DNA from: Candidatus Nanoarchaeia archaeon | GTDB taxonomy: Archaea; Nanobdellota; Nanobdellia; Woesearchaeales; JANQNE01 | Direction: 5' to 3' | DNA: 64,000 nt | NCBI GenBank assembly: GCA_028279725.1 | Contig: JANQNE010000007.1 | Coordinates: 99,406 to 163,405, forward strand | The notes under the pieces: model-generated | The model's input: only the letters and a program-made list of their open reading frames with translations | Told to the model about the DNA's origin: nothing | Database searches by the model: none | Translations under genes and position numbers: made by a program | In this document: one piece after another, positions 2-53,993 of the stretch | How the letters are laid out: each line of letters opens with the position of its first letter | Numbering within the stretch: position 1 is the stretch's first letter

Positions 2-373
2 ACAGATAAGATAGGGCATAAAAAAACACTCATAATAATACTCCTCAGCTGGATAGCTATAATACTGCTATTATATTTCATAAGCAACCTGATCACCTAT
101 GTAATAGTTGGATGTGTGGGAGGAGCATTGCTCGGTGGAGTCTGGACAGTTACAAGGCCTATGCTTCTTACGCTGGTTCCAAAAGAAAAAGCTGCTGAGT
201 TTTTCGGATTCCAGGGGCTTACAGAGAAGTTTGGAGGAGCTTTAGGACCTATACTTTTTGGATATGTCGTAGTAAGAGCAGGCTACAAGCCAGCCTTGCT
301 AATCATAATTGCGCTCCTTATCATCGCTCTGTCACTTTTCAGATTTATCCCGACCAAAAAGGTGAACCTATAG
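2..373 (+). CDS. MFS-type transporter, C-terminal fragment. The frame is open from the window edge, so this is 5'-partial. It is possibly an LplT-like lysophospholipid transporter given the Aas-like gene that follows.
   Basis: The frame is open from nt 2 with no stop. The sequence is a hydrophobic TM-helix protein, LLIIIALLIIALSLF. The ORF track starts it at GTG 116. The LplT analogy rests on synteny only. Confidence 0.45.
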   Translation, partial: TDKIGHKKTLIIILLSWIAIILLLYFISNLITYVIVGCVGGALLGGVWTVTRPMLLTLVPKEKAAEFFGFQGLTEKFGGALGPILFGYVVVRAGYKPALLIIIALLIIALSLFRFIPTKKVNL

Positions 374-9418: not shown

Positions 9419-9665
9419 GGGCAAGCTAGACTGGACAGTTAGCTCCTGTCTGTAACCACAACCGAGCTATATGGTGGAGTCGAAGTTTGGAGAGCGCTAT
9501 AGGATTGGCTTATTGGTCTTGAGTTGGACGTTGAAGTTCTGTCCTATAGGACTGGTGCCTTTGAGAATCGGGTCAGGCTGGGAACAGAGCAGCCCTAATC
9601 ATTAGTATTGGTGCTTGTAGGGTAGCGGAATTGAGGAAAATTCAAGGTTAACCATTAGGTTTTTT
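9419..9665 (+). ncRNA. ffs: Signal recognition particle RNA (7S / SRP RNA). Boundaries are approximate.
   Basis: A GC-rich stretch with no ORF in AT-rich surroundings. GGUCAGGCUGGGAACAGAGCAGCC matches the universally conserved SRP domain IV (helix 8) motif GUCAGGUCCGGAAGGAAGCAGC with a GNRA-type loop. It ends in a T-run at 9660-9665. Confidence 0.6.
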
Positions 9666-9924
9666 CTTATATCCATCTCTTTACGTGCTTGCCCGCTTAC
9701 ATTCACCACTTTCTGAAGACTATCACCAAAAAATTTATATAAAACAAACACCTAACAGCTAATTATGAACACCACAAGTAAAATCAGTATATTGAATGTT
9801 CTGGTCTTGCTAGTGGTCGTTGTACTGTAAAGCTCTCAGGCTTCGCTTGGGACTTTGCATGACTGATTCTAAAATGTAATATTCTCAAGCTGAAAAACCA
9901 AGAGCAAATAGGAGGCAAATAGAA

Positions 9925-10209: not shown

Positions 10210-12903
10210 TCATTCAATCAATATCGCAGGCTTTGCAGGATAAGCATTCTTAGATTTAGCCTCTCTGCTGTCCTGCGCTTTAATTACTTCAATCTTAATG
10301 CCAAACTCCTTTTTGATATCAGCAGAAGCATCTTTAAGAGAATTAAATTCTTTTTCTTGATCTAGAACAGTTTCAGGTATCTTTGACTCATCTTTGACTA
10401 ACTTAGGAACTAGCTTGCTTATCTCTTTTCCATATTTCTTAAGTTCAGTTGCCATCAGTTTCTTCATTATCGCTCCTGCATTATGTGTTTCCTTAAGATG
10501 CTCTTTAACTTCTTTTATAAGATCATATTTCCATTGCTCTGAAATAAACAATATTATCTTCTTAGGCTTTTTAACTTTAGTCAGTTCCATTACTGCATGG
10601 ATATCAGACACAACTCCATGAACAGTCTCTTCGCTTGCCATAGCTTCTCTGTCTATCTTACTGTCATCAAACTGAGGCCATCCAGCCTGAGAAATAAATC
10701 CTTTATTCCCCATCTTTTCCCACATCTCTTCAGCAAGATGTGGTGTAAAAGGACAAAGCATCAGAGCAAGGTTAATAGTTAATTCATCATAAACATCTTT
10801 ATTGATCTCTCCTTCTTTGTACTTATAAACATCATTCACAAATTCCATTAGTATTCCTATAGCCAAACTCAATTTGAATTCTTCCATAAACTGTGTAACT
10901 TTCTGGATCGTATAGTGCATCTTTCCTACTATATGCTTATCTCTGTTTGTCAGCTTAGCCTTCTTCTTAACTGCAAACTCACCTTCAACTAGAGTATAGA
11001 CTCTGTTCAAAAACCTAAAAGCTCCGCTAACACCTTGATCATTCCATTCTAATTCTTTCTCAGGCAATGCAGTAAACAAGATAAACAATCTAGCAGTATC
11101 ACTCCCATATTTATCGATAATCTGGCTAGGATCAACAACATTCCCTAAAGACTTGCTCATCTTAGCTCCATCTTTGATTACCATTCCCTGGCATAACAAT
11201 CTCTTAAAAGGCTCATCAAAATGTATCAACTTAAGATCACGCAAAGCTTTAGTAAAAAATCTTGCATATATCAGATGCATGCAAGCATGTTCTATGCCTC
11301 CAATATATTGATCAACAGGCATCCAATATTTAGCAGCCTTCTTATCAAACACCTCATCAACCTTAGGGCTACAGTATCTTAAGAAGTACCATGAACTATC
11401 TACAAAAGTATCCATTGTATCAGTCTCCCTTCTTGCTTTCCCACTACATTTTGGACATTTACAGTTCTTATACTCTTCAGAAGTTTCTAAAGGATTTCCG
11501 CTTCCAGTAAACTTAACATCCTTAGGCAGTTTAACAGGAAGTTCTTCCTCAGGAACAGGAACTATTCCGCATTTATCACAATAAACAATAGGTATTGGTG
11601 TTCCCCAGTATCTTTGTCTTGAGATCAGCCATTCTTTCAATTTAAAATTTACAGTCCGTTCTCCCCATCCTTTTTCTTCAGCAAGATCAGCTATATCTTC
11701 CATAGCATCTCTATTGCTCATGCCGTCAAACTCTCCGCTGTTGACCATAACTCCTTCTTCAACAAAAGCTCTTGACATCTTATCTAACTTAAGATCATAA
11801 TCATGAGGATTGATAACGATCTTCAAAGGAAGATCATACTTTTTAGCAAAATCAAAATCTCTCTGGTCATGAGTAGGAACTGCCATAACTGCTCCAGTCC
11901 CATAATCATAAAGCGCATAATCTGCAACCCACAAAGGGCATTTATCTCCTGTAAATGGGTTGATAAAATACTTCCCCAAGAAAACTCCATTCTTCTCTTT
12001 TCCTTCAGCAGTCCTTTCTATAACACTAAGCTTCTTTACTTTAGCTACAAAATCCTTCACTTCCTTCTCTTTTTTTGTTCCTTTTGTCCATTCAAGAACC
12101 TTAGGATGTTCTGCAGCCAAAACTAAATATGTTATTCCATAAACCGTATCGCATCTTGTTGTATATGTTTCAATCTCATCTATCTTCTTTCCTTTCTCAT
12201 CAACAATACCGAACTTTAAAGTTACTCCAGTACTTCTTCCGATCCAGTTCTCCTGCATTATCTTGACTCTTTCAGGCCAGTGCTCTAGTTTCTTTATATC
12301 ATCCAAAAGTTCTTCAGCATAATCTGTTATCTTGAAGAACCACTGCTCAAGATTTTTCTGATCAACTTCAGCTGAACATCTCCAGCACTTTCCGTCATGA
12401 ACCTGCTCATTTGCAAGAACAGTCTCACATTTAGGACACCAGTTGACAAAAGACTTTTTCTTATACGCTAATCCTTTCTCCAAGAATTTCAAGAATATCC
12501 ATTGGTTCCATCTAAAATACTCTGGCCTGCATGTTGCAACTTCTCTGTCCCAGTCATAACTAAGGCCCACCATCTTCTGCTGAGCCTTTATTCCCTCGAT
12601 ATTCTTGTCAGTCCAATCAGCAGGATCTGCTTTCTGTTTTATAGCTGCATTCTCAGCTGGCATTCCAAAAGAATCATAACCCATTGGATACAATACATTA
12701 AACCCTTGCATCCTCTTATACCTTGCAAAAGCATCACCAATAGAATAATTTCTTACATGGCCCATATGAAGATAGCCTGAAGGATAAGGAAACATCTCAA
12801 GAACATAATATTTAGGCATCTTCGGATCTTCCTTAACCTTAAAGATTCCTTTATCTGCCCATCTCTTCTGCCATTTATCCTGTATCTTCCTAAAATCTGC
12901 CAT
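10210..12903 (-). CDS. leuS: Leucyl-tRNA synthetase, archaeal type.
   Basis: HIGH-region MGHVRNYSIGD. KMSKSLGN. 897 aa with zinc-knuckle cysteines. Confidence 0.9.
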   Translation of the reverse strand: MADFRKIQDKWQKRWADKGIFKVKEDPKMPKYYVLEMFPYPSGYLHMGHVRNYSIGDAFARYKRMQGFNVLYPMGYDSFGMPAENAAIKQKADPADWTDKNIEGIKAQQKMVGLSYDWDREVATCRPEYFRWNQWIFLKFLEKGLAYKKKSFVNWCPKCETVLANEQVHDGKCWRCSAEVDQKNLEQWFFKITDYAEELLDDIKKLEHWPERVKIMQENWIGRSTGVTLKFGIVDEKGKKIDEIETYTTRCDTVYGITYLVLAAEHPKVLEWTKGTKKEKEVKDFVAKVKKLSVIERTAEGKEKNGVFLGKYFINPFTGDKCPLWVADYALYDYGTGAVMAVPTHDQRDFDFAKKYDLPLKIVINPHDYDLKLDKMSRAFVEEGVMVNSGEFDGMSNRDAMEDIADLAEEKGWGERTVNFKLKEWLISRQRYWGTPIPIVYCDKCGIVPVPEEELPVKLPKDVKFTGSGNPLETSEEYKNCKCPKCSGKARRETDTMDTFVDSSWYFLRYCSPKVDEVFDKKAAKYWMPVDQYIGGIEHACMHLIYARFFTKALRDLKLIHFDEPFKRLLCQGMVIKDGAKMSKSLGNVVDPSQIIDKYGSDTARLFILFTALPEKELEWNDQGVSGAFRFLNRVYTLVEGEFAVKKKAKLTNRDKHIVGKMHYTIQKVTQFMEEFKLSLAIGILMEFVNDVYKYKEGEINKDVYDELTINLALMLCPFTPHLAEEMWEKMGNKGFISQAGWPQFDDSKIDREAMASEETVHGVVSDIHAVMELTKVKKPKKIILFISEQWKYDLIKEVKEHLKETHNAGAIMKKLMATELKKYGKEISKLVPKLVKDESKIPETVLDQEKEFNSLKDASADIKKEFGIKIEVIKAQDSREAKSKNAYPAKPAILIE

Positions 12904-12955
12904 TTTAAGCTAAATTATTCAGTTCTTATATTTAAATCTTTAAGAAAAAATAGAA

Positions 12956-13153
12956 TCAGAATTTTTTGAACTTTGATGCAGTATCAATCAGATCGACATG
13001 CCCTAAAAACAGAGCTCTGCAGCAGTACTTCTCTAGACCAAGTGAATCCAGAACTTTGATTCCTTCCTCTCCTTTCTCAGTCCTTTCCTTATACTCTTCC
13101 CATGCATGTGCAACCGGCTTTCCGCATGAAAAACATCTTATTGGTATTATCAT
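12956..13153 (-). CDS. rpoN: DNA-directed RNA polymerase subunit N (Rpb10 homologue).
   Basis: MIIPIRCFSCGK...CCR has the zinc-binding pattern and length (65 aa) typical of RpoN. Confidence 0.85.
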   Translation of the reverse strand: MIIPIRCFSCGKPVAHAWEEYKERTEKGEEGIKVLDSLGLEKYCCRALFLGHVDLIDTASKFKKF

Positions 13154-13157
13154 ATGA

Positions 13158-13559
13158 TCACCTGTATGACTTCTGCCTTTTAGCTCTTGCTTTTGAATCG
13201 TTAGGCTTCCCAGTCTCCTTCCTTCTTACATCTGCAACAAGCAGATGCCTGTCATAATCTAAAAACCTTCTTTTAAGCTTGTCATCTTTTGTATATTCAA
13301 CTAATGATTTTGCAATGACTAATCTTGCAGCTTCAGTCTGGCTCGCTACTCCTCCGCCGCATACATTAACATCAATATCAACCTGGCTTGATATATTGCC
13401 AGCGATCATAAGTGGCTCTTTTATCTTCAATCTCATTATTTCAGGCTGATAAACATCTAGATCAACATTATTGATCAGTATATTTCCTTTTCCTGCTTTT
13501 ATTGTAGCTCTGCTCTTCGCACTTTTTCTTTTTCCTGAAACATGAAATGATTTGCTCAT
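13158..13559 (-). CDS. rps9: 30S ribosomal protein S9 (uS9).
   Basis: Conserved GGGVASQTEAARLVIAKSL and a basic C-terminus. Position in the operon fits. Confidence 0.85.
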   Translation of the reverse strand: MSKSFHVSGKRKSAKSRATIKAGKGNILINNVDLDVYQPEIMRLKIKEPLMIAGNISSQVDIDVNVCGGGVASQTEAARLVIAKSLVEYTKDDKLKRRFLDYDRHLLVADVRRKETGKPNDSKARAKRQKSYR

Positions 13560-13972
13560 ATTTTTGCCCCCAGTACTTTGCTTATCTCTCCTACAGACAT
13601 ATATCTTAGGCTTGGAACTTTTGAGACATTAGCTTCTTTGAAAGTTTCTGCTTTCTTGTCTTTAAGCTCATCAGGAACTCCTGCATAGCACATGACATTC
13701 TTGAAAGCTTCTCTTCCTCTTTCCTGCTTATAGGGAAGCATGCCTCTTATTGTTCTTCTGACAATTCTGTCAGGTAATCTAGGAAAATAAGGTCCTTTCA
13801 GAGGGATTCCTCTGTTTTTCTTCTGCTTATATTTCTCCAAAAGATAGCTTTTCCTTCCTGTAATTATTGCTTTTTCGCAGTTTATTACATCTATCTTCTC
13901 ACCTAACAAAGAAAGCTTAGCTATCCTTGCAGCCATCCTTCCAAGTATTAGATCAGTAGCGTCGACTATCAT
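13556..13972 (-). CDS. rpl13: 50S ribosomal protein L13 (uL13).
   Basis: N-terminus MIVDATDLILGRMAARIAKLSLLGEKIDVINCEKAIITG. Confidence 0.85.
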   Translation of the reverse strand: MIVDATDLILGRMAARIAKLSLLGEKIDVINCEKAIITGRKSYLLEKYKQKKNRGIPLKGPYFPRLPDRIVRRTIRGMLPYKQERGREAFKNVMCYAGVPDELKDKKAETFKEANVSKVPSLRYMSVGEISKVLGAKI

Positions 13973-14331
13973 CCTATTATCCTCACCTTGCTTGCTTTTG
14001 GATTTTCTTTCATAAGTTCTGAGATTGTAATTGCTTTTCCTACTTTGTTTATCTTATCTATAGCACTTTCAGAAAATTGATATGCAGCAACAGTAACTTT
14101 TCTTCCAAGTTCTCCGCCACCCAATACTTTTCCAGGAACGATTATTGTTTCGTTATCCTTGACGTTCTTATTGATTCTCAATAAATTAACAACTCTTCTG
14201 ATTCTTGTAGGTTTTTCAAGATCATCAGCAACTCTTTTCCATATCTGAACCTTCTCCTGACTACTTTTTTTCTTCAACTCTTCTACCAATGACTTCAACA
14301 TTGGGTTTGTGGGTCCGGTTCTTTTTACCAT
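13969..14331 (-). CDS. rpl18e: 50S ribosomal protein L18e (eL18).
   Basis: MVKRTGPTNPMLKSLV... The archaeal rpoD-L18e-L13-S9-rpoN gene order is conserved here. Confidence 0.8.
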   Translation of the reverse strand: MVKRTGPTNPMLKSLVEELKKKSSQEKVQIWKRVADDLEKPTRIRRVVNLLRINKNVKDNETIIVPGKVLGGGELGRKVTVAAYQFSESAIDKINKVGKAITISELMKENPKASKVRIIG

Positions 14332-14333
14332 TT

Positions 14334-14666
14334 TTATGTTATTGGGATTCCTTGTTCAATTTCCTTATCTGGAGTTAGTAATACACATTCACTCTCATCT
14401 TCTTTTTCTGCACAAAGCAACATCCCTTCTGAGATTTCACCGCCAAACTTGGCTGGTTTTAAATTAATTAAGACAATTATTTTTTTATCTTTTAATTCAT
14501 CTTCGCTGTAATAAGGAACTAAGCTCGTTACTATTTGGATTGTCTTTTCTCCGATATCTACTTTTAATTTATAGAGTTTCTCAGTTTTTGGAACCCTTTC
14601 TACTCCAATTATTTTTCCAACTTTGATTTCCAATTTTTTCCAATCATCAAAATTTATTTGTTCCAT
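14334..14666 (-). CDS. tRNA-binding domain protein (Trbp111/CsaA/EMAP-like OB fold).
   Basis: 110 aa. KVGKIIGVERVPKTEKLYKLKVDIGE...ISEGMLL is the typical Myf-domain pattern. It is inserted between rpoD and L18e. Confidence 0.6.
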   Translation of the reverse strand: MEQINFDDWKKLEIKVGKIIGVERVPKTEKLYKLKVDIGEKTIQIVTSLVPYYSEDELKDKKIIVLINLKPAKFGGEISEGMLLCAEKEDESECVLLTPDKEIEQGIPIT

Positions 14667-14676
14667 TTTTCCATAA

Positions 14677-14809
14677 TGCGGGAGACGAGGTTTGAACTCG
14701 CGCAGGCACTAAGCCACAAGGCGTTTGAAGGCGCAGGCTTCGAACCTCAAAAACCGCCAGGTTTTTCGCCGCCTCAACCTTGCCCGTTTGACCACTCCGG
14801 CACTCCCGC
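14677..14809 (-). tRNA. tRNA-Leu(GAG) with an intron of about 49 nt at the canonical 37/38 position.
   Basis: Read on the minus strand. Acceptor GCGGGAG / CUCCCGC plus A73. D-arm CCGGAGUGGUCAAACGGG. Anticodon stem CAAGG / CCUUG. Loop UUGAGG|intron|G. Long variable arm UGGCUUAGUGCC (type II). T-arm GCGAG-UUCAAAC-CUCGU. The intron-exon junctions fold into bulge-helix-bulge: a 4-bp helix U32-A35 pairs with the intron 3' end and is flanked by 3-nt bulges. CCA is not encoded. Confidence 0.65.
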
Positions 14810-14823
14810 TTTACAAACAGGAA

Positions 14824-15606
14824 TTACTTGAGCTCTTTGAGTTTTTCAGCAAATTCGTCAGCTTTCTCCTTCAGTACATCAGCTGTCTTTGCTATCATAT
14901 CTTTCGGGCTAAGTTGTCCCCATGATTCAACATAGAATACAAACTCATCTTCTTTGTATTCCACTTTGACAACATCATCACAGATCCCGTCAACAGCATC
15001 TATAAGATTTGGTGTGTTGATCTGATCTTTGTTTATCTTTCCGCTCTTGTCAAATACCTGCGGAGGATATTTATCCTTAAATTCATCAAATGATTTACTG
15101 TTATTATTAACTGTAATAATTGGTTTGTATGTATAATAGACATATCCAGGGCTCCACTTTGCGTGATCTTTTCCTCTTCCAAGAACTGCAGTTGCAGTCA
15201 GCTCCACATCCTGGCCTTTTATCAGCTTTAATACAGGAGTCTTTGGATACAATGGAACAACTTTTGGATCTGTGCTCTTTATATCAGCTGCATAAACAAC
15301 TCCAGCTTTCTTTGCAGATAATGTCATCTTAAGCTGGCACTGAGCACATCCTGCTCCCTTGCATGTACATTTATCAGGAAGATTATATGATTTCAGATCA
15401 GTCTTCAAAGGGATTAATCCTAATCTATGAGCTACCATCTCATCATACATTATTGAAGAGTTCTTTGTAAATTCAACTTCTTCTATAGCCATTGTCGGGA
15501 CTTCATCCATTGTCATCCTTCTTACAGCATTTGCAAATGGTACATCAGCACCTTTCAAGGTAAATGAAAGCTTCTCTCCCTTTTTGTCAAGTACATTTAT
15601 TTCCAT
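14824..15606 (-). CDS. rpoD: DNA-directed RNA polymerase subunit D (Rpb3 homologue).
   Basis: 260 aa with a cysteine-cluster insert CTCKGAGCAQC. Position between S11 and L18e fits. Confidence 0.85.
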   Translation of the reverse strand: MEINVLDKKGEKLSFTLKGADVPFANAVRRMTMDEVPTMAIEEVEFTKNSSIMYDEMVAHRLGLIPLKTDLKSYNLPDKCTCKGAGCAQCQLKMTLSAKKAGVVYAADIKSTDPKVVPLYPKTPVLKLIKGQDVELTATAVLGRGKDHAKWSPGYVYYTYKPIITVNNNSKSFDEFKDKYPPQVFDKSGKINKDQINTPNLIDAVDGICDDVVKVEYKEDEFVFYVESWGQLSPKDMIAKTADVLKEKADEFAEKLKELK

Positions 15607-15609
15607 TTT

Positions 15610-16092
15610 TTATACTCTCCTCCCTCTTCTTCCGCCTTTCTTTCGGCATCCGTCATGAGGGATTGGTGTTACGTCTTCTATTACCCCTATTCTTAGTCCC
15701 ATTCTTGATAGTGCTCTTACTGCTGCTTGCGCTCCTGGACCTGGATTCATAGGACCGTTGTGCCCTCCAGGCGCCTTTATCTTTACATGTATAGCATTTA
15801 TTCCTTTGTCTCTTGCAACTTCAGCTGCCTTCTTAGCTGCAACCATCGCTGCAGTTGGGCTTGATTCAAGTCTGTCCTGCTTTACTACTTGCCCTCCTGA
15901 AGTTCTTGCGATTGATTCTGTCCCTGTTATATCAGTTATATGGATTATAGTATTATTATATGAAGTGAATATATGTGCGATTCCCCACCTTTGGTCAGGC
16001 CTGGGTCTTCTGTCAAACTGCCTTCTATCATTTCTTCTGTCATGAGGTCTCCTGTTGTCTGGCCTTCTGCTTGGAGGTCTTCTTTCTTCCAT
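15610..16092 (-). CDS. rps11: 30S ribosomal protein S11 (uS11) with an R/P/D-rich N-terminal extension.
   Basis: Core [23 protein letters not shown]...AAMVAA. N-terminus [36 protein letters not shown]. Confidence 0.85.
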
Positions 16093-16094
16093 TT

Positions 16095-16754
16095 TTATTC
16101 ACTTTTCTCCTCAGTTTTTTTCTCTTCCTTTTTCTCTGCTTTCTTCTCTTCCTTTGATTTCTCTTTCTTCGCTGGTTTTTTATCTTCCTTCTTGCCTTCT
16201 TTCTTCTTTGGCTTCTTCTTCTCTTCCTTTTCTTCCTTCTCGACTATCTTCCTTTCAGGGTGTTCAGGATCTGATAATGACGACGAAGGTATAAATCCTA
16301 TCATAGCCTCTTCTTCTGTTGTTATAAGATAAGATGGCTGCGTTATTATCTTTCCGTTTACTGTAACATGTCTGTGTGTTATAAACTGCCTTGCCTGATC
16401 GATTGACCTTGCCATTCCCTTGCTCAAAAGCTGTGTCTGAAGTCTCCTCTCCATAACATCTTTCAATTTCAATCCTAAAACATCAGCCAGCTGTGCTGTT
16501 GCAGGCAGTAATCCTAAAGATTGTAATTTGACAAGCATCTCCTGCTTCTCTTTATCAGCTTGCTTTGACCTTAATGCAACCAATTTCTTAGCATCATCAG
16601 CAAATCTCTTAAGGAAAGAATTCATCTTCTGGATCTCTTTCTTATTTCTGACCCCATACTCTTTCTTAATCTCTTTCTCTTCATCTATTCTCGTCTTTTG
16701 CCACGGATGTGTTGGCGTTGAGTACGTCTTCCTTCTTTTCCTTGGATCTCCCAT
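16095..16754 (-). CDS. rps4: 30S ribosomal protein S4 (uS4) with a K/E-rich C-terminal tail.
   Basis: N-terminus [20 protein letters not shown]. The tail is [22 protein letters not shown]... Confidence 0.85.
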
Positions 16755-16765
16755 TTATTGCACCT

Positions 16766-17254
16766 TTACTTTCCTGATTTTGCTCCTGGCCTTTTCTTCA
16801 CACCAGTAACATTTCCTTTATTCTTTCTGAAATTTGATTTTGTCTTCTGTCCTCTTACAGGCAATCCATCCATATGTCTTATTCCCCTGTAAGTCTTGAA
16901 CTTCTTCATCATCTTGATATCATTATCTTTGATAAACTTAAGATCCGCAGTTGTTATATGCTTATCTTCTCCAGTCTCATAATCATTCCTTCTGTTAAGC
17001 ATCCAAGCTGGAGCTCCATTGCCCAATGGGTTGTTGATCGCATCCTCTAGTTTCTTTACTTCATCATCACTTAGAGTTCCTGCTTTTTTTGTTTTGTCAA
17101 CGCCAGTTGCAGAACATACCATGTTTGCAAACATGAAACTGACACCATAGATCTTTCTAAGTGCATTAACTATAGGTTTGCTTCCGTCAAGATCAGTATT
17201 GACGACCCTTATTATATGTTTAAAATTCTCGTCTTCTCCCATTTTATCCCCCAA
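16766..17254 (-). CDS. rps13: 30S ribosomal protein S13 (uS13).
   Basis: FKHIIRVVNTDLDGSKPIVNALRKIYGV is typical of S13. It is the first gene of the S13-S4-S11-rpoD cluster. Confidence 0.85.
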   Translation of the reverse strand: MGDKMGEDENFKHIIRVVNTDLDGSKPIVNALRKIYGVSFMFANMVCSATGVDKTKKAGTLSDDEVKKLEDAINNPLGNGAPAWMLNRRNDYETGEDKHITTADLKFIKDNDIKMMKKFKTYRGIRHMDGLPVRGQKTKSNFRKNKGNVTGVKKRPGAKSGK

Positions 17255-17365
17255 TGACGCATAGAATTAAAGCATAAGATAGCCTTAAACCCTAATGCGC
17301 TCGATTTGAACTCGGGCTTTTTACCTCAAGAAACTAGAAGTTATTTATAAAGCTTTTGATAACAT

Positions 17366-17373
17366 TTATAAAC
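17366..17373 (+). promoter_or_regulatory. TATA-box candidate for tRNA-His.
   Basis: TTTATAAA lies about 26 nt upstream of the tRNA 5' end. Confidence 0.35.
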
Positions 17374-17398: not shown

Positions 17399-17475
17399 GC
17401 GGCCATGGTGTAGCCTGGCTAGCATAGGGGACTGTGGATCCTCTAGGGCGGGTTCAAATCCCGCTGGCCGCCCCA
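17399..17475 (+). tRNA. tRNA-His(GUG), intronless, with G-1 and CCA encoded.
   Basis: Acceptor GCGGCCA / UGGCCGC, discriminator C, then CCA. A G immediately 5' (17398) can serve as G-1. D-loop AGCCUGGCUA. Anticodon stem-loop GGGGA-CUGUGGA-UCCUC. T-arm GCGGG-UUCAAAU-CCCGC. A T7 run follows. Confidence 0.8.
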
Positions 17476-20296: not shown

Positions 20297-20637
20297 GTTG
20301 TAGGGTAGCTGTAAGCCACCTTCTGTCAGACCCTCATGCAACACTGGTTACGATGGTCTGCCTTAGCATTTAACTAAGCGTCATTGCCGAATCATTGTTG
20401 ATTCAACATTTTCGACTTGCACAAGCCAGGTCTCGCCGTTTCACCCATTCTCACCAAAACATCAGTTGGTTAACTCCCTTCTCTCGCGAGAAGCTTCACA
20501 ACATCATCTTATCGGTAAGTGGTCTCGTTTCTGAGCCGTTGCCGCAGGTTTCCCCGCCTTGATTCCGCAAGTGGCCACGTATAGTGGGTGGACTTTCCTC
20601 AGACATATGTCCGTCAGCTAAGCACTACCCTACAGCC
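20297..20637 (-). ncRNA. rnpB: RNase P RNA.
   Basis: The minus strand contains CR-I-like GAGGAAAGUCCACCCAC. CR-IV-like AAUGGGUGAAACGGCGAGACC. CR-V-like GACAGAAGGUGGCUUACAG. A P1 helix CUGUAGGGUAG / CUACCCUACA joins the ends. The region is GC-rich and ORF-free. Confidence 0.75.
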
Positions 20638-20656: not shown

Positions 20657-21769
20657 TTAAAAGGTTTTCGATAAAACCACAACCTTATACTCCTGCTTTC
20701 CACTCCAGACTAATCTCTCTGATTCTATCTTAAACTTCTTCCTCAAAGCAGTTTTCTTGAAAAGCTCGATATTCTTTGAAATTGCAACCATTTTCCCTTT
20801 CAAAATAAATTCAGCATTGTGAAAAAACTCATCATAAAGTTTCTGTATAACTGTCGGTCCAGCATGCTGTGTTATTATCGGTGGATTTGTTACAATAAGA
20901 TCAACTGCCCCTTTGTCAAGTTTAGCATCCAGCCATTTTGCTTCGATCCTAGAAAAATTTATCAGCTTCTCAACACCAGCGATCTTTGCATTGTTCTTTG
21001 CAGACTTGATATATCTAAGCTGGTCGTCAAAACCATTCAGTTTAATCTCCTTGCTCTTGTCAGTTTCCTTATCAATCTTATCAAAGAATTTGTCAAAATC
21101 AAACTTCTCAAAACATTTGAATCCTAAAAAAGCAAATTTATCCTTTTGATAAAAATTAACCGGAAACTTTGACTTATGCAGAGCAGCTTCAATTATTAAA
21201 GTTCCACTTCCGCAAAAAGGATCCAATACATTTTCTCCTTCAGCCAATCTATACACGCAATAAGCGACAGTTCCCTTCAGTGCATAAGGATGCTGAAAGA
21301 TCTTATACTGCCTTTTGCTCAGATCAATTCCAGAAAAATCAACTCCAAGATATGCTTTTCCTCCTGAGATATTGACAAAAAAAGTTACATCAGGATCTTC
21401 CAGTTTTACTTTAGCTTTTTTCCTGTCTAAGATAAATCCTCCAACTCTGGATTCAACATCTTGTGTTGATTCATCTCCATCATGCATGCATCTTACACAA
21501 AAAGTTGTATCCTTCCCAAACCATTCATCAATATTTATCTTCTCAACTGATTTCTTTATATCATCAACATCAGAATAATCTACTGTATCAATCAGATAAA
21601 GAACCTTAACAACAGATTGAGCTTTATAACAAAGAAGACAAAGATCTTCCAGCTTACAGTCAAATTCAACACAGCCATCAAGAACTTTCCCCTTAGCTCC
21701 TATCAGCTCAAAAATTTCTTTAGAACAAATATCTTCAAAACCCTTATGAGTTATAGCTAATCCTTTCAT
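20657..21769 (-). CDS. THUMP-domain class I SAM-dependent RNA methyltransferase (Trm14/TrmN-like tRNA m2G methyltransferase).
   Basis: SAM-binding [15 protein letters not shown]. Catalytic DLIVTNPP. N-terminal THUMP-like region. There is a 4-nt overlap with gyrA. Confidence 0.6.
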
Positions 21770-24594
21770 CTCCTTTTCATAGCTTTCTTTCTAAGCTCGT
21801 CTATTGAAGGAACATAGTCTGGCGTTGGCTTTGGATTGAAATCCTCTTCTTTATCTTCTTCAGCAGGTTTTTCCTTTACTTCCTCTGATGATGCTTCTTG
21901 AACTGGCTCTTTCTCTTCAACTTCTTTTCGTGGTTCTTCCTCTTTTTTTTCTTCAACAGGTTCTTCTGGCTGAATCTCTTCCTGCTTTGAATCTTCAACT
22001 GGCTGCTCTTCCTTTACTTCAGGCTGCAGTTCTTCATCATGTCCATTTCCATTCTCTTCTCCAGTTTCCTCTTTTTTTATCGCTTTATTCAGTTCATCTT
22101 CACTTTCAACAACAATCTTTGCAGCTGCAGCAACCTTGTCATCTCCGCCCATCTTCATAAGCCTTACTCCTTGGGTATTTCTTCCTATCTTCGATATTCC
22201 ATCAACTCTGGTTCTGATAACAATTCCCTGCCTGCTCATAAATATAATCTCGTTATCAGGATAGACTGCTTTAACTTCAACAACCTTTCCGTTCCTTTCG
22301 CTGCACTGTATGTTGATTACACCGACCCCACCACGACCGATAACTCTGTATTCAGCCATCGATGTCTGTTTTCCATAACCATTCTCTGTAATAGTAAGCA
22401 ACCTCTTCTTATCAGTTGCAATATCCATACCAATAACTGCATCCTTTCCTTTCAGATTTATTCCTTTTACACCTTTTCCAGTCCTTCCTATTGGCCTTAC
22501 ATCTTTTTCATCAAACCTAATTGCCATTCCATTTTCTGTAGCAAGAACAATATGCCTGCTTCCATCAGTAAGCTTAGCTGTTATCAGATCATCTCCTTCA
22601 TCTAAAGTTATAGCTCTTATTCCTCCTCTTCTGGGTTTCTTAAAATTAGAAAGTGGGGTCTTCTTAATTATACCCTGTTTAGTCGCTAACATCAAGAAGT
22701 GTTCTTCATCAAATTCTTTTACAGGAATAAACGCAGTAACACTTTCTTCCTTATCTAGTTCAACTAAATTAACTATTGGTCTTCCTTTAGCCTGTCTGCT
22801 TCCCTCAGGAATATTATAGACTTTAAGCCAATGTACATTTCCTTTGTCCGTAAATACTAAGATATAACTATGGGTTGACGCAACAAATATTTCCTCTACA
22901 AAATCTTCTTCTTTTGTTCCTGTTGCTATAACACCCTTTCCTCCTCTTGCCTGTAATTTGTAAGTGTTCATAGGAACTCTCTTAACATAACCAGCATGTG
23001 TAACAGTGACGACCATCTTTTCTTCTTCAATAAGATCTTCAAAATCAATCTCAACATCTTGTCCGCCTTCCATGATCTGTGTCTTTCTTTCATCGCCATA
23101 CTTTTCTTTCATATCCTCAAGTTCTTTTTTGATTATTTCCAGTATCTTTTGCTCAGAAGCTAAGATCGCTTTTAATTCTTCAATTAATTCCAACAATCCT
23201 TTATGTTCTTCTTTGATTTTATCTTGCTCTAAGTTAGTTAACTTCTGTAATTTCATATCTAGGATAGCCATCGCCTGCTTTTCACTTAATTCATACTTGG
23301 CGATTAATCCATCTCTTGCTTCAACTGTTGATTTAGATTGTTTGATCAGCTGGATCGCATTGTCGATATCATTCAAAGCTATGATTATACCTTCAAGAAT
23401 ATGCGCTCTTTCCTCAGCCTTAACCAACTCATACTTTGTTCTCCTTCTTACAACTTCTTTTCTGTGATCTATAAAGTTCTGTATTATTTCTTTAAGGTTC
23501 AGTACTTTTGGTTCTCCATCAACCAAAGCCAACAATATCATACCTACAGTTTCCTGCATTCTTGTATGTTTATACAATTGATTAAGAACAATGTCAGGAT
23601 TTGCATCCTGCCTTAATTCAATAACTATCCTCATTCCTTCTCTGTCGCTTTCATCTCTAAGATCAGATATTCCTTGTATCTTTTTATCTCTTACAAGATC
23701 AGCAATCTGTTCTATAAGGTGGGCTTTATTCACCATAAATGGAATCTCAGAAACAATTATCCTCTGCTTATTCTTCATCTCTTCAACATTTGTCCTTGCT
23801 CTTACCAAAACTTTTCCTTTTCCTTTAGAATAAGCACTAAGGATTCCGCCAGTTCCGTAAATAATTCCTCCAGTAGGAAAATCAGGACCTTTGACATTCT
23901 CAACAAGATCCATCGCAGTTACATCAGGATTGTCAATAACTCTTATCGTTCCGTCAATAACCTCGGTCATGTTATGTGGTGGAATTGTCGTAGCCATGCC
24001 TACTGCAATACCACTGCTTCCATTAATCAAAAGATTTGGAATCTTTGAAGGAAGAACAGAAGGCTCTTTCAGGCTATTGTCAAAATTAGGGACAAAATCA
24101 ACAGTGTCCTTATCAATATCAACTAACATCTCTTCAGCAATTCTAGATAGTCTTGCCTCAGTATACCTCATTGCAGCTGCATTATCTCCATCAATTGAAC
24201 CAAAATTTCCCTGACCGTCAACTAAAGTATATCTTAAAGAAAAATCCTGAGCCATCCTGACCATGCTGTCATAGACAGCTGTATCACCATGCGGATGATA
24301 CTTTCCCAGCACCTCTCCAACAATCCTTGCAGATTTCTTAAAAGGCTTGTTATGCATCATTCCCATGCTGTGCATCGCAAAAAGAATTCTTCTGTGAACT
24401 GGTTTTAATCCATCTCTTACATCTGGCAAAGCTCTGCCAACTATTACACTCATAGAATAGTCCAGATAGCTGCTCTTCATCTCATCTTCCACTACCCTTT
24501 GGACTACTTTTTCTTCTGTATTTTGGCCTTTATTTTGCTCTGGTTGGCTATTTTCCTGGCCTTCAATTTCCTTATTTTCAGGGTTTTCAGACAT
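21766..24594 (-). CDS. gyrA: DNA gyrase subunit A with a long acidic C-terminal tail.
   Basis: [25 protein letters not shown]. The active-site Tyr region and a beta-pinwheel CTD. The last roughly 120 aa are an E/K/P-rich low-complexity tail. Confidence 0.9.
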
Positions 24595-52379: not shown

Positions 52380-53993
52380 ATGTTAGACTTAAGCACTACT
52401 TTATTGTATTACAAGAGAAAAGATATCCAGGACGCTCTTGTTGATTATGGAAAGAACAGAGAAGTAGTCGGCAGCTTCAAAGGTCAGGGCTTTGCAAAAA
52501 GACCTGACACAATACAATACCCGAGAGATGTTATAGAACTTGTTAAGCAGGGCATAACCTCATTCCACGTCTCTGAAGAAGTTTGGCACAATCCGCTACA
52601 ATTAGACTCAAGCATGAACAGAAGAGATCTTGACGAGCTTAGGATGGGTTGGGATTTAGTATTAGATATTGACTGTCCGTTCTGGCAGCTTTCAAAAACA
52701 ACCGCATGGCTGATAATAAAAGCATTAAAAGAGCATGGTGTAAAATCTATCTCATGTAAGTTCTCAGGAAATAAAGGATTCCATCTTGGAGTTCCTTTTG
52801 AAGCATTCCCTGAAAAGATTTCAGGCAACGACACAAAAGATGTATTTCCAGAAGGCCCGAGAAAGATAGCAGAATATTTAGTAAATTACATGAGTTCAAA
52901 ACATACAAAAGTCGACGGAGATAGTGTTATCTTTGGAGATTCTGTATCTCTCCCCCTAAAAAAGATAGAAGAAGACACAAAAAAGACAAGAGATGAAATA
53001 ACAACAAAATCATGCAGCTCCTGCGGTAAAAAGATAAAAGACAAAGGAACATCTGAATCAAAGTCAACTTTCTACTGTAATTCGTGCGGATTTGAAGAAG
53101 AAGCAAAAACAGATGAACTGTTCAAAAAATGCACTAAGTGCGGTTATCCTGTTGAGGCTGCAGAGACAAAAAAAGCTTTGTGCGACTGTGGCTCAAGTAA
53201 ATATGAGCTTAAGTTCAATCCTTTATCAGTTATTGAAGTTGATACTATTTTAATAGCATCAAGACACCTATACAGGATGCCTTACTCTCTTCACGAGAAA
53301 TCTTCTCTTGCATCTGTCCCAATAGACCCAGAAAAAATCCTTGACTTTGAAAAAGATATGGCAAAGCCAGAAAATGTTAAGATCAATGAATTCAAATTCT
53401 TAAACTTAGAAGAAGGTGTAGTTGGAGAATGCAACGAACTCTTTAGAGAAGCTTTTGATTTCAATCCTGATGTAGATGAAGAAGAAAGCGATGATACAAT
53501 AAAAAAAGATTTTGAATCCTTACAGGAAGCTGCTCCAAGGGATCTTTTCCCTCCTTGCATAAAAAATATCCTCAAGGGATTAAAAGATGGGAAAAAACGT
53601 TCACTATTCATACTTACTAATTTTCTAACATGCTGCGGATGGCAGTATGATGATATTGAAAAGATCCTGAAAGAATGGAATCAGAATAATGAAGAACAGT
53701 TAAGAGAAGTCCTAATCACAGGACAGCTTAGATACCATAAGCAAAACAAGAAAAAGGTCCTGCCTCCAAACTGTCCTCCACACAACACATACTTAAAAGA
53801 CATTGGAGTCTGCGTCCCAGATAATATCTGCAGCAGAATAAAAAACCCAGTTTCCTACACAAAAAGAAAAGCCTTCGCAATCAGCAAACAAGCTGAGCCT
53901 GGCAAAGCAGGCAGAACTAGGCTTACAGAAGAGCAGAAGGAGATGCGTAGAAAACACAGGAAAAAGTTGAAAAAAGAGAAGGAAGAAAATTAA
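52380..53993 (+). CDS. priS: Fused DNA primase: PriS catalytic domain with a zinc ribbon, joined to a PriL-CTD-like Fe-S domain.
   Basis: LVLDIDCP is the catalytic DxD. SGNKGFHL. Zn ribbon CSSCGKK...CNSCG...CTKCG...CDCG. C-terminal cysteines CIKN...CCGW...CPPHN...CVPDNIC resemble the PriL C-terminal 4Fe-4S domain. 537 aa. Confidence 0.6.
   Translation: MLDLSTTLLYYKRKDIQDALVDYGKNREVVGSFKGQGFAKRPDTIQYPRDVIELVKQGITSFHVSEEVWHNPLQLDSSMNRRDLDELRMGWDLVLDIDCPFWQLSKTTAWLIIKALKEHGVKSISCKFSGNKGFHLGVPFEAFPEKISGNDTKDVFPEGPRKIAEYLVNYMSSKHTKVDGDSVIFGDSVSLPLKKIEEDTKKTRDEITTKSCSSCGKKIKDKGTSESKSTFYCNSCGFEEEAKTDELFKKCTKCGYPVEAAETKKALCDCGSSKYELKFNPLSVIEVDTILIASRHLYRMPYSLHEKSSLASVPIDPEKILDFEKDMAKPENVKINEFKFLNLEEGVVGECNELFREAFDFNPDVDEEESDDTIKKDFESLQEAAPRDLFPPCIKNILKGLKDGKKRSLFILTNFLTCCGWQYDDIEKILKEWNQNNEEQLREVLITGQLRYHKQNKKKVLPPNCPPHNTYLKDIGVCVPDNICSRIKNPVSYTKRKAFAISKQAEPGKAGRTRLTEEQKEMRRKHRKKLKKEKEEN

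Follow-up and report, generated by a model that had tools for sequence, protein, structure and literature searches.

An intron-containing tRNA-Leu(GAG) gene and a Trbp111/YgjH-type gene side by side in the S13–rpoN ribosomal cluster of a Woesearchaeota-like archaeon

Introduction

In the complete genome of the DPANN archaeon GW2011_AR10 a tRNA gene is embedded in a cluster of ribosomal protein and RNA polymerase genes, in the order S13-S4-S11-rpoD-tRNA(leu)-L18e-L13-S9-rpoN-S2 (PMC10833476). Here we analyse the corresponding locus in a stretch of 64,000 nucleotides of contig JANQNE010000007.1 (hereafter the window), in which an intron-containing tRNA-Leu(GAG) gene stands between rpoD and the gene for a 110-aa protein with a tRNA_bind domain. 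The window shares the protein gene order of AR10 and likewise has tRNA-Leu between rpoD and L18e, but it carries the additional tRNA_bind gene between tRNA-Leu and L18e, and rpoN is followed by the gene for leucyl-tRNA synthetase (LeuRS), whereas in AR10 it is followed by S2.

Free-standing proteins of ∼110 aa that consist of a tRNA_bind oligonucleotide-binding (OB) fold are represented by Escherichia coli YgjH and Aquifex aeolicus Trbp111. The window protein has the same build, but it is archaeal and is encoded within a ribosomal-protein operon. The export-related chaperone CsaA, also of the tRNA_bind family, has the Pfam domain and the size in common with it and differs in subfamily, while the C-terminal domain or beta subunit of methionyl-tRNA synthetase (MetRS; Pyrococcus abyssi, 1MKH and 8VTZ) is homologous in fold, the window protein being unfused to a synthetase. 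A co-crystal study of Trbp111 in 2024 showed that tRNA is recognised solely via its single-stranded 3′ terminal CA, with contacts made by E32, K33, K73, R75, I77, F78, S82 and M85 (PMC11286949).

Canonical archaeal tRNA introns lie at position 37/38 and are marked by a bulge-helix-bulge (BHB) motif. The intron in the window likewise follows position 37 and has a 4-bp helix and two 3-nt bulges that would hold the cleavage sites, but its outer helix is short and the energy model assigns greater stability to a competing fold; its orthologues, in contrast to the canonical 37/38 introns, show many non-canonical intron positions.

Results

When introns were enabled, ARAGORN called tRNA-Leu(gag) at c[14677,14809], with a mature length of 84 nt and an intron of 49 nt. 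A search of 14600–14900 with Rfam RF00005 gave a match over exactly 14677–14809 (40.8 bits, E=1.7e-7; gathering score 29), which spans model positions 1–71 with a 52-nt insertion at the anticodon loop. Neither default ARAGORN nor a whole-window Rfam scan at the gathering score called the gene; it was detected solely by the intron-enabled or the local search. The tRNA is of type II; its variable arm is long, its discriminator is A73, and its gene encodes no CCA at the 3′ end, which reads ...CTCCCGCA and is followed by TTATGG. Once spliced, it aligned end to end with 21 intron-less orthologues, whose consensus cloverleaf has 24 pairs, 14 of them with compensatory changes and none broken. ARAGORN, a covariance-model score above its threshold and covariation thus agree with the initial annotation, which had placed an intron-bearing tRNA-Leu(GAG) on the minus strand at this position; the gene is real.

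The placement of this tRNA was surveyed in the 80 best RpoD-anchored loci of a species-representative genome collection (loci are designated by L numbers). Cluster proteins were mapped on them by tblastn, and the gap between rpoD and L18e was searched with ARAGORN -i and with an acceptor/anticodon pattern; in L015, L017, L022 and L070 the ARAGORN coordinates were used, the pattern search having begun on an upstream acceptor-like hairpin. All 80 loci come from metagenome-assembled genomes (MAGs) of Woesearchaeota/Nanoarchaeota or from MAGs mislabelled ‘Methanosarcinales’, and homologues of the 110-aa protein carry names such as Woesearchaeota and Aenigmatarchaeota; the source of the window is a Woesearchaeota-like DPANN archaeon. 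A tRNA-Leu(GAG) gene was present between rpoD and L18e in 73 of the 80 loci (truncated at a contig end in two of the 73); its anticodon loop reads UUGAGG, or UCGAGG in a few. The seven tRNA-less gaps measured 13–66 nt (L027, L028, L038, L077, L078, L082) or, in L089, 159 nt of A+T-rich DNA. The arrangement had been thought unusual when the window was first annotated; for the tRNA the gene-order comparison reverses this, its position between rpoD and L18e being the rule in the lineage. A tRNA-Leu gene presumably also lies here in the alpha-operon region of Haloarcula marismortui. In the literature on rpl18e/rpoD/tRNA and on tRNA genes of the alpha operon, the published AR10 order was the sole statement found. 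We conclude that the position of tRNA-Leu in the operon is ancestral and already known.

The 110-aa protein matched Pfam PF01588 (tRNA_bind) with 104 bits over residues 14–107, covering 95 of the 96 profile positions. Its closest solved structure is that of E. coli YgjH (PDB 3ERS, E=7e-33), to which residues 1–108 align with residues 1–108 at 58/108 identities (54%), followed by the Pyrococcus MetRS C-domain, Trbp111 (1PYB, E=4e-19) and MetRS beta subunits. Among the NCBIfam models, TIGR00399 (metG_C_term) scored 118.7 bits against a cut-off of 116.65, and NF007492 (‘tRNA-binding protein’, the YgjH-type equivalog) scored 141.4, below its cut-off of 150. The CsaA models fell far short (TIGR02222, 54.6 against 119.65; NF007496, 45.2 against 171), and of the earlier designation ‘Trbp111/CsaA-like’ only the first half can be kept. 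The annotation of some relatives reads ‘methionine--tRNA ligase subunit beta’, and a fragment of MetRS or of phenylalanyl-tRNA synthetase (PheRS) had been considered; the tRNA gene lies 10 nt upstream, however, and the ATG corresponds to YgjH residue 1. No open reading frame (ORF) for MetRS or PheRS adjoins the gene, and none of the ten largest ORFs in the window encodes MetRS. By these comparisons the protein is classed as a stand-alone Trbp111/YgjH type, neither a synthetase fragment nor CsaA. The equivalents of Trbp111 E32, K33, K73, S82 and M85 are conserved in it, and that of I77 is Phe.

In Pfam order, and all on the minus strand, the cluster runs S13, S4, S11, RpoD, tRNA_bind, L18e, L13, S9, RpoN, as had been annotated. 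The spacer from the rpoD stop (14824) to tRNA-Leu is 14 nt, that from tRNA-Leu to the tRNA_bind ATG (14666) is 10 nt, and that from the tRNA_bind stop to L18e is 2 nt; the two distances given earlier, 15 and 10 nt, were correct to within 1 nt. Every junction from S13 to rpoN is of 0–14 nt or an overlap. There is no T-run in the 10-nt and 2-nt spacers around tRNA_bind, no oligo-T terminator after rpoD or after tRNA-Leu in the window, and no TATA-like hexamer at −38 to −22 of the window tRNA-Leu. Among the orthologous loci such a hexamer was found in 5 of 73, and the spacer between the rpoD stop and the tRNA is mostly 5–25 nt; these short spacers and rare hexamers suggest that tRNA-Leu is normally read within the operon. 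Given the spacing of 14, 10 and 2 nt and the lack of a T-run or a TATA-like box in the window, co-expression of tRNA-Leu and tRNA_bind is, as far as sequence can tell, very likely.

Occupation of this slot by a tRNA_bind gene is uncommon. The order rpoD–tRNA-Leu(GAG)–tRNA_bind–L18e was recovered by protein search in L008 (86% identity), L009 (81%) and L010/L011/L012 (80%), and among the 80 surveyed loci tRNA_bind is in the slot in four (L050, L055, L056 and L076). L055 is the same contig as L009 and is of the YgjH type; the other three encode CsaA-type proteins, that of L050 scoring 138.1 bits with TIGR02222, above the cut-off of 119.65. Homologues 75–80% identical to the window protein are encoded outside the cluster, in unrelated neighbourhoods (L001, L004, L013), and none of ∼45 metagenomic loci with relatives of ≥60% identity lies in the cluster next to L18e. 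In most relatives, tRNA-Leu has no adjacent tRNA_bind gene or the tRNA_bind gene is elsewhere. The carriers are dispersed over a rough neighbour-joining tree built from seven concatenated cluster proteins, with near sisters that lack the gene, e.g. L039 and L065 beside L008. When the window is compared with L008/L009/L010, no other cluster gene is as well conserved as tRNA_bind (80–86% identity, as compared with 47–54% for RpoD and 70–81% for S11). A distribution and conservation of this kind could result from repeated capture or replacement in place, from lateral exchange or from frequent loss; the insertion is a rare, lineage-restricted variant of gene order made from known families. In L001 (5531–5703, equivalent to L095:2531–2703) a tRNA-Lys(CUU) gene with a 98-nt intron lies ∼300 nt upstream of the non-cluster tRNA_bind gene, with a PQ-loop gene between them.

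The rpoD–L18e junction has the most gaps of >300 nt among the seven junctions of the cluster (18 of 76, with 8 of 76 >450 nt). The S9–rpoN junction has six gaps of >450 nt, and the remaining five junctions have 0–2. Besides tRNA_bind, the slot holds LAGLIDADG ORFs (L008, L076 and, broken, L061), unknown ORFs (L070, L080), partial tRNA duplications (L029, L010) and acceptor-like hairpin elements. The LAGLIDADG-type ORF, with the motifs GLCFGDGSL and LRGLIDTDGSV, lies between rpoD and tRNA-Leu (L008:2788–3714, L076:3110–3949, L061:5000–5871); the L061 copy has a frameshift, the 3′ end of the ORF runs into the tRNA gene, and the product is possibly a homing endonuclease, free-standing and directed at the rpoD/tRNA-Leu junction. 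In L029 (4890–5090) the 3′ ∼55 nt of tRNA-Leu, including a T-loop intron, are repeated directly ∼85 nt downstream, much like the mark left by integration at the 3′ end of a tRNA. Long rpoD-to-tRNA spacers contain a hairpin element (L010:5690–5740, L014:4795–4847, L017/L018/L020/L022, L045 and L070:4800–4942) that opens with the 7 nt of the tRNA acceptor 5′-strand, continues with an inner hairpin of 6–7 bp and ends in the complement of that strand, after which comes a conserved leader, ∼CTCGCTCACGCTCGT. The element is present in two tandem copies in L070 and absent from the window, and it looks like a tRNA-derived mini-helix.

The borders of the intron were set without recourse to any motif, by alignment to the intron-less orthologues, which places a 49-nt insertion after position 37. 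The resulting loop, UUGAGGG, is that of the intron-less orthologues, most of which share G38. With these borders U32-U-G-A35 pairs with UCAA at intron positions −6 to −3, a match whose chance probability, for an exact 4-nt Watson–Crick complement at a fixed offset, is ∼1/256. The bulges are G36-G37-C(i1) and A-C-G38, and cuts after the second bulge nucleotide of each strand yield the observed exons. The outer, intron-side helix consists of two pairs, G-U and G-C. Folding of the precursor did not give the BHB: in the minimum free energy (MFE) structure the anticodon stem is extended instead, and the stability of the whole pre-tRNA is not unusual as compared with shuffled sequences (z=−0.35). 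MFE folding was therefore dropped as a test of the BHB, and the boundaries defined by orthologues were used. L023 (49 nt) and L047 (46 nt) have homologous introns, and the splice-site features ...CAAAC/G and GG/C (cuts marked by a stroke) recur in the introns of L047 (46 nt) and L021 (34 nt). Inspection of the 49 nt by eye revealed neither a C box (RUGAUGA) nor a D box (CUGA). The motif had been called a textbook BHB; its register, 4-bp helix and 3-nt bulges hold, while ‘textbook’ is overstated because the outer helix is of 2 bp only and the energy model favours another fold. The intron is an ordinary canonical one, weakly structured.

It is also one of a variable set. Approximately 30 of the 71 complete tRNA-Leu(GAG) orthologues are intron-less and the others have one to three introns, three being found in the gene of L057, at the positions listed in Table 1. 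The non-canonical positions suggest that the splicing endonuclease of the lineage is of broad specificity.

Downstream of the cluster, 52 nt from rpoN, lies the LeuRS gene (10210–12903, minus strand), which is chimeric. Residues 4–577 match the bacterial leuS model TIGR00396 (1013 bits), and residues 523–897 match the C-terminal part of archaeal LeuRS (PRK12300, 389 bits; TIGR00395, 331 bits). A chimeric LeuRS of this kind is described for Natrialba magadii (PMC4005665). LeuRS directly follows rpoN in at least 12 orthologous loci, so that tRNA-Leu and LeuRS stand in one gene string across the lineage. The ribosomal cluster is flanked by the genes for RNase P RNA, signal recognition particle (SRP) RNA and tRNA-His(GTG). 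A T-arm-like stretch upstream of S13 was considered as a tRNA and dropped, there being no Rfam tRNA match. The N terminus of S11 is extended by ∼35 aa in which Arg, Pro and Asp are abundant (gene at 15610–16092, minus strand), and S4 has a Lys/Glu-rich C-terminal tail of ∼60 aa (16095–16754, minus strand), both outside the Pfam domain. Elsewhere in the window, a 537-aa ORF (52380–53993, plus strand) has Pfam matches to both the small and the large primase subunit, which suggests a fused PriS–PriL, and a gene for a bacterial-type DNA gyrase A is present at 21766–24594 (minus strand).

Table 1. Features of the tRNA-Leu locus, its surroundings and its orthologues. Positions are those of the window unless a locus is named.
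Feature	Position	Strand	Basis or remark
S13	16766–17254	−	Pfam; likely start ATG 17242
S4	16095–16754	−	Pfam
S11	15610–16092	−	Pfam
rpoD (RNA polymerase subunit D, Rpo3)	14824–15606	−	Pfam RNA_pol_L + RNA_pol_A_bac
tRNA-Leu(GAG) gene	14677–14809	−	ARAGORN with introns, Rfam RF00005, orthologue covariation
5′ exon, tRNA positions 1–37	14772–14809	−	Alignment to intron-less orthologues
Intron at 37/38, 49 nt, two small hairpins inside	14723–14771	−	Orthologue alignment, ARAGORN
3′ exon, G38 to A73	14677–14722	−	Orthologue alignment
BHB elements	14722–14777	−	Read from sequence; folding energies
BHB central 4-bp helix	14774–14777 (U32–A35) with 14725–14728 (UCAA)	−	
BHB 5′ bulge GGC	14771–14773	−	
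BHB 3′ bulge ACG	14722–14724	−	
Stand-alone 110-aa tRNA_bind protein (OB fold), YgjH/Trbp111/MetRS-beta type	14334–14666	−	Pfam, NCBIfam, PDB
L18e	13969–14331	−	Pfam
L13	13556–13972	−	Pfam
S9	13158–13559	−	Pfam
rpoN	12956–13153	−	Pfam
Two TATA-like boxes (TTTATAAAT) upstream of S13	17341–17372	−	Putative promoter of the unit
T6 run just after rpoN	12945–12950	−	Putative end of the ribosomal unit
TTTAAATATAA box ∼25 nt before the LeuRS ATG	12926–12936	−	Putative separate LeuRS promoter
tRNA-His(GTG)	17399–17475	+	Divergent from S13
Archaeal RNase P RNA	20300–20633	−	Rfam, 166 bits
Archaeal SRP RNA	9419–9694	+	Rfam, 143 bits
CsaA-type tRNA_bind in slot	L050:5264–5596; L056:1089–1424; L076:4021–4353		33–39% identical to the window protein
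Orthologue introns at 37/38			11–49 nt
Orthologue introns in the D-loop			Several loci
Orthologue introns in the anticodon stem, 27–29			Several loci
Orthologue introns in the T-loop, 59/60			Up to 117 nt (L063)
Orthologue intron in the variable arm			L073

Discussion

We consider it probable that an ancestral, operon-embedded tRNA gene lies here beside a permissive slot that captured a gene for a generic tRNA 3′-end-binding protein, which is co-transcribed with the ribosomal genes. The tRNA would have neither a promoter nor a terminator of its own and would be transcribed in a polycistron that extends from upstream of S13 to rpoN. Cleavage by RNase P and RNase Z would release it, the splicing endonuclease would cut the 49-nt intron at the BHB, a ligase would join the exons and CCA would be added. 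A tRNA that is read in a polycistron and then excised necessarily leaves the message in two parts, here an S13–rpoD part and a tRNA_bind–L18e–L13–S9–rpoN part with a 10-nt leader. The slot around tRNA-Leu, the most variable junction of the cluster, would have taken up the small OB-fold gene in the lineage of the window and in a few scattered others. LeuRS probably forms a separate transcription unit.

Judged by its homologues, the captured protein is probably a dimer that grips mature tRNAs of any kind by their single-stranded 3′ CCA. By analogy the CCA-less primary transcript of tRNA-Leu would not be a ligand, and the protein may be best viewed as a general tRNA/synthetase cofactor acting in trans rather than as a partner of tRNA-Leu. 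Its position would give it growth-coupled expression at the level of ribosomal proteins, with no specific pairing of protein and substrate. The initial annotation had proposed co-expression of a tRNA chaperone with its substrate; the spacing of the genes favours the co-expression, while recognition of the 3′ CA and the absence of an encoded CCA argue against the relation of chaperone to substrate.

Several observations weigh against this explanation. The residue equivalent to Trbp111 R75 is Ala in the window protein, as it is in E. coli YgjH, and that equivalent to F78 is Gly; with these two positions changed, the mode of tRNA binding may differ from that of Trbp111. In ViennaRNA the conformer that combines cloverleaf and BHB reaches −38.4 kcal/mol, 13 less stable than the MFE structure at −51.4 kcal/mol, and its outer helix is limited to 2 bp. 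One and the same slot is filled by a YgjH-type gene in some lineages and by a CsaA-type gene in others, a finding that random capture predicts poorly and that may point to selection favouring a tRNA-binding protein here. We infer co-transcription and processing from spacing alone, and the case for an ancient position of the tRNA across Archaea is drawn from DPANN data and one paper.

Separate transcription units are the alternative that fares best, although we regard it as unlikely. The tRNA would then have a promoter in the 3′ end of rpoD, and/or the genes from tRNA_bind through L18e, L13 and S9 to rpoN would have one over the 3′ part of the tRNA. Promoters in archaea can be of low strength and situated within a coding region, many archaeal mRNAs lack a leader, and the T-loop sequence TTCAAA stands ∼30 nt upstream of the tRNA_bind ATG. 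On the other hand, the region at −38 to −22 of the tRNA has no TATA-like hexamer in the window and has one in few of the orthologous loci (see Results), the 10-nt spacer together with the G+C-rich 3′ end of the tRNA is too short for a normal TFB recognition element (BRE) and TATA box, and neither rpoD nor the tRNA is followed by an oligo-T terminator.

Functional coupling, in which tRNA_bind acts on the adjacent tRNA-Leu as a folding or splicing chaperone or hands it over to the chimeric LeuRS, is less likely still. It would account for the presence of two tRNA_bind subfamilies in the identical slot in seven distinct genomes, and for the fact that tRNA_bind makes up about half of the protein genes inserted at the rpoD–L18e junction; the succession of rpoN and LeuRS, which the window shares with many orthologous loci, would also agree with it. 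The tRNA-Leu gene has an intron in six of the seven carriers, but more than half of all orthologous tRNA-Leu genes contain introns, so that the association of carriers with introns is not significant. Moreover, OB folds of the Trbp type bind the universal 3′ CA and not the body of the tRNA (PMC11286949), no CCA is encoded, 69 of the 73 tRNA-bearing loci have no tRNA_bind gene there, close homologues are encoded elsewhere in most genomes, and LeuRS seems to have its own promoter after the T-run. That the tRNA is a decaying or non-spliceable copy, with a functional tRNA-Leu(GAG) elsewhere, is very improbable: the non-BHB MFE fold, the 2-bp outer helix and the loss of the tRNA at this place in the nearest neighbours on the rough tree (L027, L028, L078) would suit such a copy, but removal of exactly 49 nt gives a perfect cloverleaf with no broken pair and compensatory changes relative to 21 orthologues, the introns of L047 and L021 retain the same splice-site features, and the orthologue introns in the D-loop, anticodon stem and T-loop imply a broad-specificity endonuclease.

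Capture of a generic tRNA-binding protein at a permissive slot thus remains our preferred explanation. We doubt that the two tRNA_bind subfamilies were selected for this slot, either for coupling of synthesis to tRNA processing or for specific help in the maturation or charging of tRNA-Leu; their recruitment could have been independent or could reflect in-place replacement. If such selection were real, the tRNA_bind mRNA would be made by RNase Z cleavage, coupling the synthesis of the tRNA_bind protein and of L18e, L13, S9 and RpoN to the capacity for tRNA processing; alternatively, the protein would aid the maturation of an intron-rich tRNA-Leu or its charging by the chimeric LeuRS.

Intron-bearing tRNAs in DPANN genomes are easily missed, as the failure of both default scans here illustrates. 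The 73 syntenic tRNA-Leu orthologues, with introns at no fewer than five positions, form a natural series for the study of intron gain and loss and of endonuclease specificity. Should the recurrence of tRNA_bind at this junction prove to be selected, the locus would provide a small example of tRNA processing that punctuates, and perhaps regulates, a ribosomal-protein operon in reduced archaea.

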